This document shows positions 1,550 to 11,982 of a stretch of 13,558 nt of DNA, in pieces. The stretch lies in the IMG/VR virus record IMGVR_UViG_2529292874_000020, one strand, 5' to 3'. The stretch's first letter is position 1, and every line of letters starts with the position of its first letter. Origin of the DNA: a virus. Taxonomy: Duplodnaviria; Heunggongvirae; Uroviricota; Caudoviricetes. The position numbers and the translations under genes are program-made. The notes beneath the pieces were generated by a model. The model saw only the letters and a list, made by a program, of their open reading frames with translations, ran no database searches and was not told the origin of the DNA.

Positions 1550-2548
1550 CTATGGCTTTCCCCAGCTCAACGATTGTGCGTACATCGCGATCGTTGTAGT
1601 AACGCCACGGGCAGGGGTCCCCTGCCGTTCGTATGAACGGCGCAAAATCGTGTTGTCGAAGTTGGCTCCATTTCCCCAGACATGAACAAAAAATTCACCG
1701 GAGTTTTCGTCGATAAATTCCCGCAATTGTAACAGTGCATCATCTAACGGGATTTCATCGGTCATAATGGCAGATTGCGCTTCGCGTGATTGCTTAAGCC
1801 ACCATTTCATGGTGTCCCGATCAATGACTCCGCCAGCAGTATCCAGATCGATAGTCTTACTAAATTCCGGTCCCATATCTCCGGTTTGCGGATCGAAAAA
1901 TATTGCACCTATTGAGATGATCGGGGCATCAGGATTTTTTCCCATGGTTTCAAGGTCGATCATTAGATGAATCCCCGCTCTGCTGGTGGATGTGAGATTA
2001 TGATGACCGTTCGCCTTAATTAAGGGATCTGACGCCTCGCCAGTTTCACTATCGCTGGCATGATGCTGATTGCCGCCAGTGTTCTCCTTGTGCTGATGTG
2101 CAGTACCTTCCATTTCCTCCGGATCATTTTCCTGAACTTCAGGCTGATTCTCTCCATCGAATATTTCCTGGTATGTTGCGTCGCCCATCACCGCGCCACA
2201 ATCAGGGCAGTTGCCGCCGCCGGTCTGACCGCAGGCGGTGCAGACTTTTTCCGGTTCCTGTTGCGCTACTGGTTCAGGTTGTTTCGTTTCTGGCTCGTTT
2301 TGTAACGCATTTGGACTGTTTTGTTCCGTTTCTTGCTGGTTCTGGTTCACAGAATCGCGGGTTTCAATCCCCTTCACCCATTTCGGATCATTCGGGTCGC
2401 TAATCCCTTCAACAAATTCACCACGTGATGCAGCAAGCAATTTATCGGCGTCAGGCTGGCTGATATTGGCTGCCTGCATAATTTTGTTTACTTCGTCAGC
2501 GGTAACTTTTACCGGCTCTGGTTGTTCTGAATCTTCAGCGGTATCCAC
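1550..2548 (-). CDS. Exonuclease fragment (RecE-like linker plus DEDDh Exo I/II motifs; C-terminus lost to frameshift) as an ORF caller would report it
   Basis: 332-aa ORF from the supplied track, starting on GTG. Contains MIDLETMG and NGANFDNTIL. The expected H-x4-D motif is absent from this frame but present in the adjacent frame downstream. Confidence 0.6.
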   Translation of the reverse strand: MDTAEDSEQPEPVKVTADEVNKIMQAANISQPDADKLLAASRGEFVEGISDPNDPKWVKGIETRDSVNQNQQETEQNSPNALQNEPETKQPEPVAQQEPEKVCTACGQTGGGNCPDCGAVMGDATYQEIFDGENQPEVQENDPEEMEGTAHQHKENTGGNQHHASDSETGEASDPLIKANGHHNLTSTSRAGIHLMIDLETMGKNPDAPIISIGAIFFDPQTGDMGPEFSKTIDLDTAGGVIDRDTMKWWLKQSREAQSAIMTDEIPLDDALLQLREFIDENSGEFFVHVWGNGANFDNTILRRSYERQGTPARGVTTTIAMYAQSLSWGKP

Positions 2549-3297
2549 ATTTTGCGGTAAGCCCGTGTATGTGCCATTTTTTCGGGCAAAATATTCTTCT
2601 TTTGTGATTTCAGTACCGCCGGCAGCCAGCGCCTTGTCCAGACCAGAAAGTTTGTTTGCCCTGCCGTATTTTTCGCCTCCTTATCGGTGAAGAGGAAGTA
2701 GAACGGCCCCTCACGCTCTACAGATGGTTCGACTTCCACTTTGCATTCGGTTTTTTCGTTGTCCGGAATTGCCGTTTCCACTGCATCAGTTTCTGGTACT
2801 GGCGACGAGAGAGTGTCAGTTGCGCTCTGATTTGTTCCTTCATCTTCAAACACGCCCTTTGTAGTCAGGTATTCAGTAATGTATTTGTTCAGTGCCACAG
2901 GGTCTTTGTGAATATCGATCGGACGTTCGCGAACAAGGCCAAAAATAGTCTGACGGTCATAGCCAAGTGCTTCGGGCTGTTTGCGCATTGATGCTGAGAT
3001 ACGCTTCCAGTCTTCGCGATCCTTGTCGATAACCTCATTTGTCGCCCAGCGATGGATGGTACCGTCAATGTTTCCTGCATCCACATCACCGGGCCAGAGG
3101 GCGCAGGCCAGTTCGTCATCCAGTGTTTTCCATGTCTGCTTATATTCGCGACGAATGACTGCAGTGACAGGGGGGGTTTTTTCAGCAGCGTTTTCAGTGT
3201 TCTGTTGGTTGACTCTGGCGCGGGCGAGATCAACAACAGACGTGTATTTTCCGGTTTCCTTGCGTTCACCTTCGCGACGTTTTTTCCAGATGCGCAT
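2509..3297 (-). CDS. Fragment of the same disrupted RecE-like gene (middle segment)
   Basis: 262-aa ORF, protein-like over its first ~200 aa. Its last ~55 aa (Trp/Arg-rich) look out of frame, while the exonuclease frame is open and protein-like from 2680 downward. The other frame over 2889-3297 is compositionally junk. Confidence 0.5.
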   Translation of the reverse strand: MRIWKKRREGERKETGKYTSVVDLARARVNQQNTENAAEKTPPVTAVIRREYKQTWKTLDDELACALWPGDVDAGNIDGTIHRWATNEVIDKDREDWKRISASMRKQPEALGYDRQTIFGLVRERPIDIHKDPVALNKYITEYLTTKGVFEDEGTNQSATDTLSSPVPETDAVETAIPDNEKTECKVEVEPSVEREGPFYFLFTDKEAKNTAGQTNFLVWTRRWLPAVLKSQKKNILPEKMAHTRAYRKMWIPLKIQNNQSR

Positions 3298-3548
3298 TTC
3301 TGCCTGAATTTCAGGCCATTTGCACCAGGCTTACATTTATGCTTAACCCACCCGATGGCATGCAGCTTAAGCTCCGGATACATGGCGTTAACTTCTGGCA
3401 TTTTCATCAACGCTTCAACGATATGTCCGTCGAATGTTGCCATGTCTTCCTGCAACAATTCCTGTGCGCTAATCACCATATCAACGGTGATGTTTTCACA
3501 TGTGTCGAACTTAACCATGACAGCGTTCTGTACTTCAGGGGCAGCTTG

Positions 3549-4508: not shown

Positions 4509-4566
4509 AAAAAGGGCGGCAGAGCAGTCACGGAGTAAAACTGATACCGCCAAACGTCACCAGAAA
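4509..4566 (-). ncRNA. dicF: DicF small RNA (ftsZ-targeting sRNA of the dicB operon)
   Basis: The reverse complement of 4509-4566 reads TTTCTGGTGACGTTTGGCGGTATCAGTTTTACTCCGTGACTGCTCTGCCGCCCTTTTT, which matches the DicF sequence as I recall it, including the GC-rich 3' stem and U-run. Orientation and position (between the ydfC-like gene and dicB) fit. Confidence 0.7.
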
Positions 4567-7106: not shown

Positions 7107-7641
7107 ACAGGTTTGTGAGGCTCTGGATACCTGGGTATGCCGACCAGGAATGACACAGGAGCAGGCGACGATATTAATCACGGAAGCATTCTGGGCTCTG
7201 AAAGAACGCCCGAACATCGATGTTCAACGCGTCACGTTTAATGATGGCGAGGTTGATCAACGGGCGCTGGGCGTTAACCGGGTGAAGATATTCGAACGCT
7301 GGAAAGCTATCGACACCAGAGATAAGCGTGACAAATTCACGGCGCTGATTCCGGCAATTATGGAGGCTATCCGGATCAGCGATTTCAGATTGTATTGTGA
7401 AATTACTGACGGAAAAAGCATTACGTACATGATCGCCGGGTTAAACAAAGAATATGGCGATGTGGTGGAGTCCGGGCTGCTTTTTGCGGATCCAGTTGTT
7501 GTGGAACGTGAGACTGACGAGCTTATAGAAAAAGCTATTGCTTTCAAGCACGCGTATCGTCAGCAATACCAATATTACTTTGCAGATAAACAAATGTCTG
7601 CCAGGGGGGCGTATGAGTATCGATGCACTACGATGGGCTAA
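7090..7641 (+). CDS. YdaT-like protein (prophage CII-like/YdaT family, function uncertain)
   Basis: 183-aa ORF whose start overlaps the dicC stop (ATGA-type coupling) and whose end overlaps the replication gene start. Position after the cro-like gene mirrors ydaS-ydaT in Rac. Family assignment is by recollection only. Confidence 0.55.
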   Translation: MKITTEQVCEALDTWVCRPGMTQEQATILITEAFWALKERPNIDVQRVTFNDGEVDQRALGVNRVKIFERWKAIDTRDKRDKFTALIPAIMEAIRISDFRLYCEITDGKSITYMIAGLNKEYGDVVESGLLFADPVVVERETDELIEKAIAFKHAYRQQYQYYFADKQMSARGAYEYRCTTMG

Positions 7642-8650
7642 AAAGGTGAAAACCGGCAGTTCATCCAGTAAGTCAGTATTGACCTGGCTTGCTGATATGT
7701 GCGGTGCCGATTTGTGTGCATACCCGTCTGTATCTGCACTGGCAGAAGTAACGGAACTGAACAAAAAGACTGTGCAGGACAGCTTACGACACCTGATGGA
7801 GATTGGGTTAATTGTTGATACCGGTGAGAGAAAAGGCAGAACAAAGCAAATTGTGGTGTACCGACTTATCGGTGTAGAAGAAAGTGTTGCCGAGCCTGAA
7901 TACACCCAAAAACGGGAGTCTTTAAAGGTGGGTAAAATTGGTGCTGTTAATAAAAACAGTACCGAAAATGGTTATGTTTCAGCACAAAACAGACCCAAAA
8001 ACAGAACTCTTAGCTGCATGGAAAATAACCAAAGACACCCAAATTTTCCATCAAAGACACCCAAAAACGGATCACGGAACCCAAAGGAACCCAAAGATCT
8101 AAACCCCACACATAACGCACGCGAGAGTGCTCCGACCAGTGAGCAGGAAGTTTTGTCGTTACAGGCAGCCCCCCCTGTATTCCTGTATGGCCTGAGCGAA
8201 CCCATCGGAAAATTCCCGATGAGCGATAGCTGGTATCCGTCACGGGATTTTCGACGACGGGCTGCGTTGTGGGGGATGGCTTTGCCGGAGACAGAGTTTA
8301 CACCTGCTGAGCTTGCCGCATTCCGGGATTACTGGATGGCGGAGGGGAAGGTTTTCACGCAGGTTCAGTGGGAGCAGAAATTTGCCCGTCACGTGCAGCA
8401 CGTCAGGGCACAGGTAAAACCAGTCAGCAAGGGGGTAAGCCATGCAGCACCAGGTGGCACCGCATCACGGGCAGTTCAGGAAATTCGGGCAGCACGTGAA
8501 CAGTGGGAACGTGAAAACGGATTTATCAGCAACGGAAACGGCCTGGAAGCTGTGGGAACTTATGGGGGAGGTGTATTCGAACCGCTGGACCCAGAAGAAC
8601 GGGGCTGCGCCGTCGAAGCTCTGGATTGCTCAGATTGGCGCGATGACTGA
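7613..8650 (+). CDS. Replication initiation protein (N-terminal HTH domain, C-terminal DnaT-like domain)
   Basis: Likely start is the ATG at 7613 (MSIDALRWAKK...), preceded by AGGGGGG; the track ORF starts 25 codons earlier. The C-terminal segment WYPSRDFRRRAALWGMALPETEFTPAELAAFRDYWMAEGKVFTQVQWEQKFARHVQ resembles the DnaT C-terminal domain. Internal iteron-like repeats. The 3' end overlaps the next gene by 209 nt. Confidence 0.7.
   Translation: MSIDALRWAKKVKTGSSSSKSVLTWLADMCGADLCAYPSVSALAEVTELNKKTVQDSLRHLMEIGLIVDTGERKGRTKQIVVYRLIGVEESVAEPEYTQKRESLKVGKIGAVNKNSTENGYVSAQNRPKNRTLSCMENNQRHPNFPSKTPKNGSRNPKEPKDLNPTHNARESAPTSEQEVLSLQAAPPVFLYGLSEPIGKFPMSDSWYPSRDFRRRAALWGMALPETEFTPAELAAFRDYWMAEGKVFTQVQWEQKFARHVQHVRAQVKPVSKGVSHAAPGGTASRAVQEIRAAREQWERENGFISNGNGLEAVGTYGGGVFEPLDPEERGCAVEALDCSDWRDD
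7990..8097. repeat. Iteron-like direct repeats (ACCCAAA core) inside the replication initiator gene; candidate prophage origin
   Basis: AAAGACACCCAAA is repeated exactly at 8031-8043 and 8054-8066. GAACCCAAAG occurs in tandem at 8077-8096. A further ACAGACCCAAAAACAG copy sits at 7990-8005. The repeats encode a low-complexity P/K/N-rich linker, as with the lambda ori inside O. Confidence 0.45.
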
Positions 8651-9104
8651 ACAGCAAATCCGGCAGGTCTGCCGTCAGTGCATGGACCGCTGCCGGGCGG
8701 GTGAAACGTGGCCTCCGGATCTGGCTGAGTTTGTGGCGTTGATTTCGGAGAGCGGGGCAAATCCATTTGGCCTGACGGTGGATGCCGTGATGGAGGAGTA
8801 CCGTCGCTGGAGGAATGAATCCTGGCGGTACGACGGGAGTGATAAGTACCCGTGGTCTCAGCCTGTGCTGTATCACATTTGCCTCGAGATGCGTTCAAAG
8901 GGGATTGAGCGCCAGATGACCGAAGGGGAATTAAAACGGCTTGCAGAACGGCAACTGACGAAATGGGCAAAGCATGTTAGTAACGGCCTGAGCGTTCCGC
9001 CAGTCCGGCGACAACTGGCAGCACCCAAACGCCCGCCAGGGCCAACGCCAATTGAGTTGCTGAAACAGGAATATGAACGCCGGAAAGCGGCTGGTTTTGT
9101 CTGA
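8442..9104 (+). CDS. Replication protein, lambda P N-terminal-domain-like
   Basis: 220-aa ORF with ATG at 8442 preceded by AAGGGGG. The segment LWIAQIGAMTEQQIRQVCRQCMDRCRAGETWPPDLAEFVALIS aligns by eye with the lambda P N-terminal region (EQVNAGMRVARRQNRPFLPSPGQFVAWC). Confidence 0.6.
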   Translation: MQHQVAPHHGQFRKFGQHVNSGNVKTDLSATETAWKLWELMGEVYSNRWTQKNGAAPSKLWIAQIGAMTEQQIRQVCRQCMDRCRAGETWPPDLAEFVALISESGANPFGLTVDAVMEEYRRWRNESWRYDGSDKYPWSQPVLYHICLEMRSKGIERQMTEGELKRLAERQLTKWAKHVSNGLSVPPVRRQLAAPKRPPGPTPIELLKQEYERRKAAGFV

Positions 9105-10470: not shown

Positions 10471-10540
10471 GATGGACTTGATTATACTCATTGCATTGTC
10501 AGAAATAGTTATCCATTAAAGGCTGGCTATTCCAAACAGG

Positions 10541-10568
10541 ATGTTGATTACAAAAATGTAATCAACAT
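10541..10568. promoter_or_regulatory. 28-bp near-perfect palindrome (12-bp arms, AAAA spacer) in the AT-rich leader of the ModA-like gene; candidate operator
   Basis: ATGTTGATTACA-AAAA-TGTAATCAACAT, about 165 bp upstream of the ATG at 10733, followed by a TATAAT hexamer at 10595-10600. Confidence 0.35.
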
Positions 10569-10732
10569 GTAAGGTTTATACTCTTCAATATGCGTATAAT
10601 TTTCCTTATTTTGTTGACTTTAAATAACAAGCTATGCACGAGGTAAAGTCGGATAAGTTTATCTGGATGTAATATATATTATTTGTAGTGTTTATAACTT
10701 TATTTCATGATAACCAATAAAAGGAGTTTTTT

Positions 10733-11491
10733 ATGAGGAACATAATGGCAGGTTTTTTAATATTCCTGTCTTCTGCTGCTTATGCTGATATCAATCTGTA
10801 TGGTCCTGGTGGCCCGCATACAGCCTTGCTTGATGCAGCCAAACTTTATGCCGAAAAAACAGGTATTATAGTGAACGTTCATTACGGCCCACAGAACAAA
10901 TGGAATGAAGATGCCAAAAAAAATGCAGATATCTTGTTTGGCGCATCAGAACAATCTGCTCTGGCTATCATTCGGGACCATAAAGACAGCTTCAGTGAAA
11001 AAGATATTCAGCCTCTTTATCTGCGAAAAAGTATTTTACTGGTAAAGAAAGGTAATCCTAAAAATATCCGGAGTATTGACGACCTGACCAGACCTGGGAT
11101 TGGCGTAATTGTTAATGATGGTGGTGGTACCAGTAATACATCAGGCACTGGCGTCTGGGAAGATATTGCCGGACGTAAAGGGAATATAGAAACTGTCGCC
11201 GCAATCCGAAAAAATATTATTTTATATGCGCCCAATAGCGGAACTGCACGTAAGGCTCTTGAGAATCAGCCTGGAGCAGATGTCTGGATAACCTGGGCTG
11301 ACTGGGCAGCCAGTAATCCAGAAATTGGTGATGTCGTGGAAATAGCGCCAGACTACGTGATATGGCGTGATATGAACATTACAGTACGTCAGGATGCAAA
11401 TGATGAAACCCGTCGATTTGCAGAATGGCTACAAACCGATGAAGCGGCGCCTGCATTCAAAAAATATGGCTGGACCAGGAAAGGCACTTGA
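10733..11491 (+). CDS. Orphan periplasmic substrate-binding protein, ModA/TupA-like (PBP type II fold), with signal peptide
   Basis: 252-aa ORF with AAGGAG RBS. N-terminal signal peptide MRNIMAGFLIFLSSAAYA. The mature protein matches the ModA-type oxyanion-binding layout by eye (ADILFGASEQ vs ModA PADLFISADQ; C-terminal FKKYGW vs ModA FKRYGF). No permease or ATPase genes are adjacent. The leader is AT-rich. Confidence 0.75.
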   Translation: MRNIMAGFLIFLSSAAYADINLYGPGGPHTALLDAAKLYAEKTGIIVNVHYGPQNKWNEDAKKNADILFGASEQSALAIIRDHKDSFSEKDIQPLYLRKSILLVKKGNPKNIRSIDDLTRPGIGVIVNDGGGTSNTSGTGVWEDIAGRKGNIETVAAIRKNIILYAPNSGTARKALENQPGADVWITWADWAASNPEIGDVVEIAPDYVIWRDMNITVRQDANDETRRFAEWLQTDEAAPAFKKYGWTRKGT

Positions 11492-11634: not shown

Positions 11635-11826
11635 GCGAAAACGGTTTGCTGTAACGGCAGAGTTAAGTAGGATTGCTGCGGGTGCTTGAGGCTATCTGCC
11701 TCGGGCATGAACACCAACGGCAGATAGATAAAAGCCCCACCCGACTATAAATCGAAGTGAGGCCCCTATATGCTCGTCACATATAGATTGCCTCTTACGG
11801 ACCGAAAGGTCAAGGAGAAGCAGGCT

Positions 11827-11982
11827 ATGAAGCAGCAAAAGGCGATGTTAATCGCCCTGATCGTCATCTGTTTAATCGTCATAGTGACGGCACTGGTAAC
11901 GAGGAAAGACCTCTGCGAGGTACGAATCCGAACCGGCCAGACGGAGGTCGCTGTCTTCACAGCTTACGAACCTGAGGAGTAA
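11827..11982 (+). CDS. hokD: Hok-family type I toxin, HokD/RelF-like
   Basis: 51-aa ORF MKQQKAMLIALIVICLIVIVTALVTRKDLCEVRIRTGQTEVAVFTAYEPEE with a single transmembrane segment and the conserved Hok C-terminus. AAGGAG RBS 8 nt upstream. The track ORF 11770-11982 is the same frame with a 19-codon upstream extension. Confidence 0.85.
   Translation: MKQQKAMLIALIVICLIVIVTALVTRKDLCEVRIRTGQTEVAVFTAYEPEE

Follow-up and report, generated by a model that had tools for sequence, protein, structure and literature searches.

A Rac-like lambdoid prophage with a candidate replication origin in its initiator gene

Which function maintains a set of short repeats inside the coding sequence of a phage replication initiator? 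The question is raised by a 13,558-nucleotide (nt) stretch of Caudoviricetes DNA (IMG/VR record IMGVR_UViG_2529292874_000020; the whole stretch is called the window here, and coordinates count from its first letter), in which the heptamer ACCCAAA recurs within the initiator gene. A preliminary description had proposed five such copies as iterons of a candidate origin bound by the product of the surrounding gene, as in lambda O. Our analysis supports initiator-binding iterons inside the initiator gene, on the grounds of conservation at the DNA level, of a repeat type that changes together with the N-terminal domain, and of a P-like loader gene downstream. Judged from sequence, the repeats are almost certainly binding sites of the prophage's own initiator, and the region 7898-8104 is probably the replication origin, or its initiator-binding part, of a Rac-like lambdoid prophage.

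The repeat array and its unit

On the + strand of the window, ACCCAAA starts at 7904, 7993, 8037, 8059, 8079 and 8089, which amounts to six starts within 192 base pairs (bp; 7904-8095). A lone seventh copy lies at 9023 on the same strand, and none was found on the - strand of the window. Seven occurrences in the whole window compare with 2.4 expected, and the maximum of six per 200 bp compares with at most two in 2000 first-order Markov simulations. A null with the local A-rich composition of 7881-8130 never reached six copies in 20000 trials, and chance can be excluded as the source of the clustering. All five copies previously placed inside 7990-8097 were recovered (7993, 8037, 8059, 8079 and 8089), as was a tandem pair at 8077-8096 (GAACCCAAAG at 8077 and 8087). 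The exact 13-bp repeats described at 8031 and 8054 both exist as AAAGACACCCAAA, the second of them beginning one base earlier, at 8053. The extent and the unit of the array had to be revised: it starts at 7898, approximately 90 bp upstream of the 7990 given before, it includes a degenerate copy that had been overlooked (ACCGAAAATGG, 7961-7971), and ACCCAAA is not the full repeat core, its seven bases being one half of a unit of ~19 bp.

The consensus of this unit is GAAYRNA-CCC(A/G)AAAACGG-K, i.e. GAAYRNA-CCCAAAAACGG-K, a CCC-N6-GGG quasi-palindrome in which the dyad of the core, CCC-N6-GG(G/T), has arms of only 3 bp. In relatives it can form perfect 12-bp palindromes (CCCAACGTTGGG in Acinetobacter; CCCAAATTTGGG in the loci L030 and L033 and in Bcep176). 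When sites were picked on the core alone, leaving the flanks unselected, the flanks were conserved nevertheless: position -5 is A in 57/57 sites, position -6 is A in 49/57, and +11 is occupied by G or T. A weight matrix built exclusively from eleven loci of other genera was scanned along both strands of the 13.5-kb window. Its four top matches, all on the + strand, start in rank order at 7898 (29.7), 8053 (26.9), 7987 (19.7) and 7954 (17.2), followed by the next match at 10.0; four matches scoring 12 or more were found where 0.12 would be expected. Among the ten best matches, the six outside 7898-8071 score at most 10.0 and are scattered singly, so that no second cluster is formed.

The array consists of four full iterons, one variant and one decayed copy, all on the + strand. 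Iteron 1 (GAATACACCCAAAAACGGG, 7898..7916, read as TQKRE), which reaches the maximum possible matrix score, is conserved in Kluyvera, Plesiomonas and Edwardsiella. It is followed at 7924..7942 by the decayed copy (core GGTAAAATTGG), which has no matrix score; its columns in the alignment coincide with those of an intact CCCAAAAACGG iteron in Edwardsiella and Plesiomonas, the decay being seen in E. coli. Iteron 2 (AAACAGTACCGAAAATGGT, 7954..7972, read as TENG) is degenerate and aligns with ACCGAAAACGG in three other genera, and iteron 3 (AAACAGACCCAAAAACAGA, 7987..8005) is read as RPKNR. The variant or half iteron at 8031..8049 (AAAGACACCCAAATTTTCC, read as HPNFP) begins with the same 13 bases as iteron 4, but its 3' half differs and ends in TTTTCC. 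Its position is kept in relatives as CCCAATTTT or CCCGTTTTTT, and it resembles CCCAAATTTGG, the predominant repeat type in Paracidovorax and Bcep176. Iteron 4 (AAAGACACCCAAAAACGGA, 8053..8071, read as TPKNG) has a core that is invariant in four genera.

Conservation of the array at the DNA level

Because the array is 100% identical among PPompW prophages, distant homologues were needed to distinguish selection on DNA from selection on protein. Homologues of the N-terminal domain of the initiator, with 35-79% identity, occur in many bacteria (Kluyvera, Klebsiella, Edwardsiella, Plesiomonas, Yersinia, Proteus, Providencia, Arsenophonus, Marinobacterium, Ralstonia, Noviherbaspirillum and many Acinetobacter) and in the phages phiV10, Vibrio phage Her, Burkholderia phage Bcep176 and AP22. 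The 11-mer CCCAAAAACGG was counted with up to two mismatches in the window and 52 homologous genomic loci, taking 330 bp as the linker segment that follows the N-terminal domain. This yielded 161 matches in the linker (9.2/kb) and 70 in the other 257 kb (0.27/kb), a 34-fold enrichment across homologues with 41-79% N-terminal identity. The same DNA motif fills the linker in the 52 homologous loci and in three phages.

Nearly all linker copies lie on the coding strand, distributed over frames 0/1/2 as 77/36/44. Depending on the frame they are translated as PKNG/PENG, QKR or (V)PKT, often mixed within one gene: one locus (L010) has 12 copies in frames 6/4/2, and the window itself reads TQKR, TENG, RPKN, HPNF and TPKNG. 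The codons are fixed as well. Proline in P[KE]NG motifs is CCC in 42/42 cases vs 13/106 elsewhere in the same genes (p=9e-26), asparagine is AAC in 42/42, and in QKR motifs glutamine is CAA in 12/12 and arginine CGG in 11/12 vs 32/199 elsewhere (p=8e-8), although these p-values are overstated given that homologous repeats are phylogenetically non-independent. As the N-terminal domains have diverged by up to ~60% in amino acids, free synonymous sites should be randomised. The reading in three frames together with the fixed synonymous sites therefore indicates that selection acts on the DNA. Conservation at the protein level only had been named beforehand as the result that would speak against iterons, and the opposite was found.

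These data bear directly on the idea that the repeats are a protein feature, in which a PK-rich low-complexity linker is selected as a peptide and the repetition of the DNA is a side effect of duplication. The linker peptides do look repetitive (PKNG, PKEPK), distant homologues align across the linker, and some phages have in-frame 24-bp tandem repeats. However, one 11-mer is read in three frames, often within a single gene such as that of L010, its synonymous codons are fixed, and the linker is predicted to be disordered. We consider this explanation highly improbable and reject it on the frame and codon data. The linker motifs TQKR, PKNG, TENG and PNFP are, as far as frames and codons can tell, by-products of DNA sites that are tolerated by a disordered linker.

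Least probable of all the alternatives is that programmed ribosomal frameshifting takes place at the C CCA AAA A stretches and gives rise to alternative initiator isoforms. CCCAAAA fits the slippery pattern X XXY YYZ in one frame, and a second frame runs through the array without a stop (ORF, open reading frame, 7938-8102). Yet only a minority of the copies has the slip-competent frame, conservation reaches GAAY and CGG(G/T), beyond any slippery heptamer, and the Acinetobacter variants CCCAACGTTGG are not slippery; a downstream structure was not noticed, but no search for one was made. The frame and codon data led us to reject this explanation, too. The second-frame ORF 7938-8102 (+ strand, 54 amino acids (aa)), which spans most of the iteron array, is probably a by-product of the A/C-rich repeats and no gene.

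Two of the homologous loci carry further CCCAAAAACGG-like matches on the + strand upstream of the initiator gene, six at 635-1033 nt in L050 (Arsenophonus) and three at 725-1515 nt in L034 (Phaseolibacter). They may represent a second array or a second gene copy.

The initiator module and the proposed origin

The initiator gene (7613..8650, + strand) encodes 345 aa that match Pfam DnaT (PF17948, E=5.9e-17), weakly HTH_36, and phrog_1032 (E=2e-91), which carries the PHROG label 'replication initiation protein'. E. coli PPompW prophages encode a 97% identical product under the name 'phage replication protein'. Its winged-helix domain (aa 1-90; 7613..7882, + strand), predicted by AlphaFold2 with a predicted local distance difference test score (pLDDT) of 92-98 and composed of four helices and a beta-hairpin wing, is the presumed reader of the iterons. 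Foldseek matched this domain with ArsR/MarR-type winged helices and with the plasmid Rep-DNA complex 5kbj, and a PDB sequence search with the N-terminal domain returned only a generic archaeal regulator. Its (nearly) invariant residues include K52, T53, V54, D69, T70, G71, E72, R73, G75 and T77. The linker (aa 91-200) contains all the repeats, with an AlphaFold2 pLDDT of 38-56; the four full iterons and the variant (7898-8071) correspond to aa 96-153, which places them past the N-terminal DNA-binding region and ahead of the C-terminal domain. The latter is a DnaT-like domain for binding single-stranded DNA (PF17948; aa 201-267; 8213..8413, + strand; pLDDT 85-96), which Foldseek aligned with residues 84-153 of DnaT (4ou6, 6aeq) at 56-58% identity and a root-mean-square deviation of 1.0.

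The array ends where this gene is mosaic. Megablast homology of Rac ydaU-type genes to the window gene begins at gene nt 481-488, corresponding to window 8093-8100 and hence to the 3' end of the array; the partners past this point are Rac-SA53 and many E. coli genes. The module junction (GATCTAAACCCCACACATAACG, 8095..8116, + strand) continues downstream into a part homologous to Rac ydaU-type genes with other N-terminal domains, and the sequence AAACCCCACACATA at the junction is common to the window and the loci L001-L003. In the genes of E. coli PA11 and ECA64, the C-terminal half is 90-91% DNA-identical to the window, whereas the N-terminal domain is unrelated. The CCCAAAAACGG motif is absent from both genes. 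At the corresponding place they have GTCACGAC repeats instead, nine in all and on the + strand; these form two clusters, one of which immediately precedes the shared AAACCCCACACATA. We presume them to be iterons of another type of origin. The CCCAAAAACGG array, for its part, stays with the winged helix in combination with four kinds of C-terminal domain (DnaT-like, PF09524-like, Acinetobacter-type and Proteus-type). The repeat type swaps with the N-terminal domain, and in this comparison of genes that is the pattern expected of a cognate protein-site pair moving as one module.

Some further observations concern the junction and its partners. The sequence GATCTAAACCCCACACATAAC (window 8095-8116), which encodes LNPTHNA, is also present in L001, L002, L003 and L004; located at the point where unrelated N-terminal modules meet a common DnaT-like half, it is likely a recombination boundary of the mosaic gene. 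Repeats of (T)GTCACGAC with a spacing of 10-11 bp are located at 2154-2214 and 2435-2484 of L002 and at 2147-2207 and 2428-2477 of L003. The ydaU gene of Rac-SA53 (L001) has neither a CCCAAAAACGG array nor any comparable one at the equivalent place, and therefore provides no direct link to the Rac origin oriJ. At 2422-2454 and 2483-2505 of this locus we noticed GATACA repeats as well as a perfect inverted repeat of 10 bp (TGTTCAAACA/TGTTTGAACA).

The mosaic structure could also suggest that the repeats serve another DNA transaction, namely as a recombination hotspot or module boundary, a partition or packaging site, or a site for a host factor. In line with this, the array ends exactly at the mosaic junction, and a 10-bp tandem unit near its end is unstable in one strain. 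But the junction sequence AAACCCCACACATA is distinct from the iterons and common to genes with unrelated repeats, while the iterons track the N-terminal domain. Moreover, the gene context is replication rather than packaging or partition, and the region has neither a DnaA-box match nor an Rfam family. We regard such a role as very unlikely.

Directly 3' of iteron 4 follows a second repeat class, the short tandem units CGGAACCCAAA GGAACCCAAA GATCTAAAC (8074..8104, + strand), within which TRF reports GGAACCCAAA x2.1 at 8076-8096. Tandem units of 9-13 bp in two to four copies come after the last iteron in nearly every homologue and begin with (G)GAAYC/GAACAG. Examples are CGGAATCTTTCAAAGAATCTATCAATAGAATCT followed by an A-tract in Acinetobacter, GGAACCGTCA x4 in Noviherbaspirillum, AACCAGTCATAT x3.4 in phiV10, AGAACCAGTCATT x2.5 in Vibrio phage Her and GAACAGTAG x4 in Bcep176, with differing frames (TRNLSKNLSLES vs TESFKESFNES). 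The block at 8074-8104 is the window's version of this element, so the last two ACCCAAA copies belong to it and not to the iterons. The earlier equation of all five copies with iterons thus stands for the array as such, but not for the tandem GAACCCAAAG pair, which is part of a separate conserved element. In E. coli 2011C_4247 (L056, 301-1331), one of the two GGAACCCAAA units corresponding to window 8076-8096 is deleted, and the resulting frameshift leaves an ORF with only the helix-turn-helix (HTH) part and a DnaT-like pseudogene. The 10-bp GGAACCCAAA unit is a slippage hotspot that can switch the initiator gene off. By its position, the block is the best candidate for an unwinding or loading site; it is AT-rich in Acinetobacter and has 52% GC in the window.

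We propose the following course of initiation. The operon of cro-like gene, ydaT, initiator and P-like loader would be transcribed, and the N-terminal winged helix of the initiator would bind the four full ~19-bp iterons, and probably also the variant, to form a complex resembling the lambda O-some. The flanking DNA would then open, for which the GGAACCCAAA/GATCTAAAC tandem units 3' of the last iteron are the best candidate and a stretch of 30-32% GC inside the array is an alternative. Finally, the C-terminal DnaT-like domain and the P-like protein would bring in the host DnaB. The candidate loader gene (8643..9104, + strand) overlaps with its start codon the stop codon of the initiator gene. 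It matches Pfam Phage_lambda_P (PF06992, E=1.1e-16) and phrog_109 ('P-like helicase loader', E=1.5e-54), and is annotated as 'replication protein P' in RefSeq. On the upstream side, the initiator gene is preceded by cI/cro-like genes and ydaT, so that the context is that of a replication module.

The closest model for such an arrangement is lambda, where the iterons lie inside O, directly after the winged-helix region and in different frames, and are followed by an AT-rich tract (PMC7466680). The four annotated lambda iterons (TCCCTCAAAACGAGGGA and variants) start at O codon 117 and read IPQNEG, SPKTRD, SLKLGD and PSKQGD. The window shares with ori-lambda, as found in lambda and Stx/lambdoid phages, repeats that sit in the ORF of the initiator, after the N-terminal winged-helix region and ahead of the C-terminal domain, the use of different frames and a similar core (lambda TCCCTCAAAACGAGGGA vs window CCCAAAAACGGG). 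Common to both are also the P-type loader gene downstream, the location in a rightward early operon after cro-like genes, and the exchange of the N-terminal half and the origin as one module. In contrast, the window has dyad arms of 3 bp instead of the 6 bp in lambda, adds a conserved 5' GAAY extension, spaces its iterons irregularly, has GGAAYC-type tandem units in place of a clear AT-rich tract, and encodes a C-terminal domain that is DnaT-like and not lambda-O-like. With their N-terminal region and linker, lambda O and the window protein hit the same two families, phrog_678 and phrog_345 ('replication initiation O-like'). By analogy, the element probably works like ori-lambda, as a distant relative of it.

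Several points weigh against an origin at this place, in addition to the overstated codon statistics. The spacing of the iterons is irregular (56, 33, 44 and 22 bp), and one ancestral copy has decayed. The homology to O is only indirect: BLASTP of the window initiator against lambda O yielded no match, Pfam Phage_rep_O does not match the initiator, and hhalign paired window aa 40-84 with O aa 72-116 at E=0.0028 but with a probability of 10.8%. The AT-rich unwinding tract that the preliminary description had expected nearby is weak. The lowest 40-bp GC in the gene is 0.30, located inside the array at ~7917-7972 (3.6th percentile of the window), and a strongly AT-rich tract was found neither in nor adjoining the array; the 60 bp 3' of the last iteron have 52% GC. 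For most of the Acinetobacter relatives, GC amounts to 25-37% in the 60 bp behind the last iteron, against 35-42% for the locus, and the GC profiles of the family show a mild dip only. DnaA boxes (TTWTNCACA) are missing from the window. A large exonuclease gene at 1550-3518 (- strand) is split into several overlapping ORFs and is frameshifted according to the PPompW_14040 record; the prophage looks at least partly decayed, and with this gene fragmented the candidate origin may no longer fire. In the searchable literature we found no binding or replication experiments on the element or any homologue. As regards other signals, promoter-like or terminator-like sites were not detected in the array, and Rfam families do not cover it.

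The main residual alternative is that the sites are bound by the initiator for control only, by autorepression, titration, handcuffing or a transcription roadblock, with the true origin elsewhere in the prophage. A cognate binding site of whatever function would be expected to show DNA-level conservation and domain coupling, a convincing AT-rich unwinding tract is missing next to the window array, and iteron plasmids employ their iterons for control as well as for initiation. On the other hand, the window contains no second cluster of matrix matches, the position equals that of ori-lambda within O, and a conserved second repeat block comes after the last iteron, as unwinding elements do in known origins. 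The control and origin roles are also not mutually exclusive. We consider a purely regulatory function unlikely, and an origin at 7898-8104 remains our preferred interpretation.

A further-reaching interpretation, which we put forward tentatively and regard as less likely than not, concerns the family as a whole. The winged helix, the iterons and the GGAAYC-type tandem block could form one portable cassette that has been joined to at least four unrelated helicase-recruiting C-terminal domains in phages of Gamma- and Betaproteobacteria, with the block acting as an unrecognised sequence-specific unwinding or loading element. Conserved as DNA in different frames and not necessarily AT-rich, the block would in this case be comparable to DnaA-trios or to plasmid 13-mers that are bound single-stranded.

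Related systems, neighbouring genes and significance

For Rac-type prophages an active origin, oriJ, has been reported (PMC3945230), and Potrykus 2000 is listed for an active Rac origin among the references of PMC11014345. The window resembles oriJ of E. coli K-12 Rac (ydaU-ydaV) in prophage type and gene order, with a DNA identity of 87-91% for the P-like gene and for the initiator's C-terminal half. It differs from Rac in that the N-terminal domain of Rac-SA53 YdaU is unrelated and without a CCCAAAAACGG array.

Theta-plasmid iteron origins (RepA/RepE/pi/TrfA) likewise have several same-orientation repeats of ~19 bp and a winged-helix initiator, and the tandem repeats by the last iteron of the window recall the 13-mers of plasmid unwinding elements. 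We rejected this class, since the window repeats lie inside an ORF with a spacing of 56/33/44/22 bp, without the ~22-bp phasing, a DnaA box or a Rep_3-type Pfam match; helicase loading would moreover depend on a lambda-P-like protein. In repABC plasmids, the origin is located inside the coding sequence of the initiator repC. The window has a candidate origin within an initiator gene in common with repC, and its N-terminal domain matches RP-C of Pfam at E=0.0077, which is below the cut-off; gene context and partner proteins are different. With E. coli DnaT the initiator shares the C-terminal ssDNA-binding domain (PF17948; 4ou6, 6aeq), but its N-terminal part is a winged helix of the phage-initiator type, and the gene resides in a prophage replication module and is not a chromosomal primosome gene. 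A Pf-5 paper that surfaced in the literature deals with an unrelated plasmid-type oriV.

At 97% identity, the region corresponds to the replication module of the E. coli PPompW (Rac-like) prophages, in which a dicA-like repressor, a dicC/cro-like gene, a ydaT-family gene, the replication protein and P follow each other. The ydaT-family product is hypothetical according to the record and YdaT_toxin according to Pfam. A near-full-length copy is present in 907/5426 complete E. coli genomes (~1/6), O157:H7 among them. Elsewhere in the window, two Rfam families scored above the gathering score, the DicF antisense RNA at 4514-4565 (- strand, 76.7 bits) and the sok antitoxin RNA at 11680-11829 (+ strand, 103.9 bits). 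The latter adjoins a gene that is annotated as gef, 'phage maintenance protein', in the PPompW record. The AT-richest stretch of the window, 10480-10750 (40-bp GC 0.15-0.25), lies just upstream of ORF 10733-11491, annotated as Paa/AdfO adherence factor in the same record; together they look like foreign cargo with its own promoter region.

The layout described here has been known from lambda for decades, whereas this repeat family appears to be undescribed: we found no description of CCCAAAAACGG-type repeats in the searchable literature, which is no proof of absence. The analysis provides a candidate origin at base level for a prophage type carried by about one sixth of the complete E. coli genomes, and places phiV10, Vibrio phage Her, Burkholderia phage Bcep176 and many Acinetobacter prophages in the same origin family. 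It explains the odd PKNG/QKR/TENG linkers, which annotation pipelines take for protein features. Within the family, the DNA signature GAAYRNACCCAAAAACGG followed by short tandem units would predict both the origin and the specificity of the initiator. Finally, the locus offers a clean case of a coding sequence dictated by DNA-binding sites and not by the protein.

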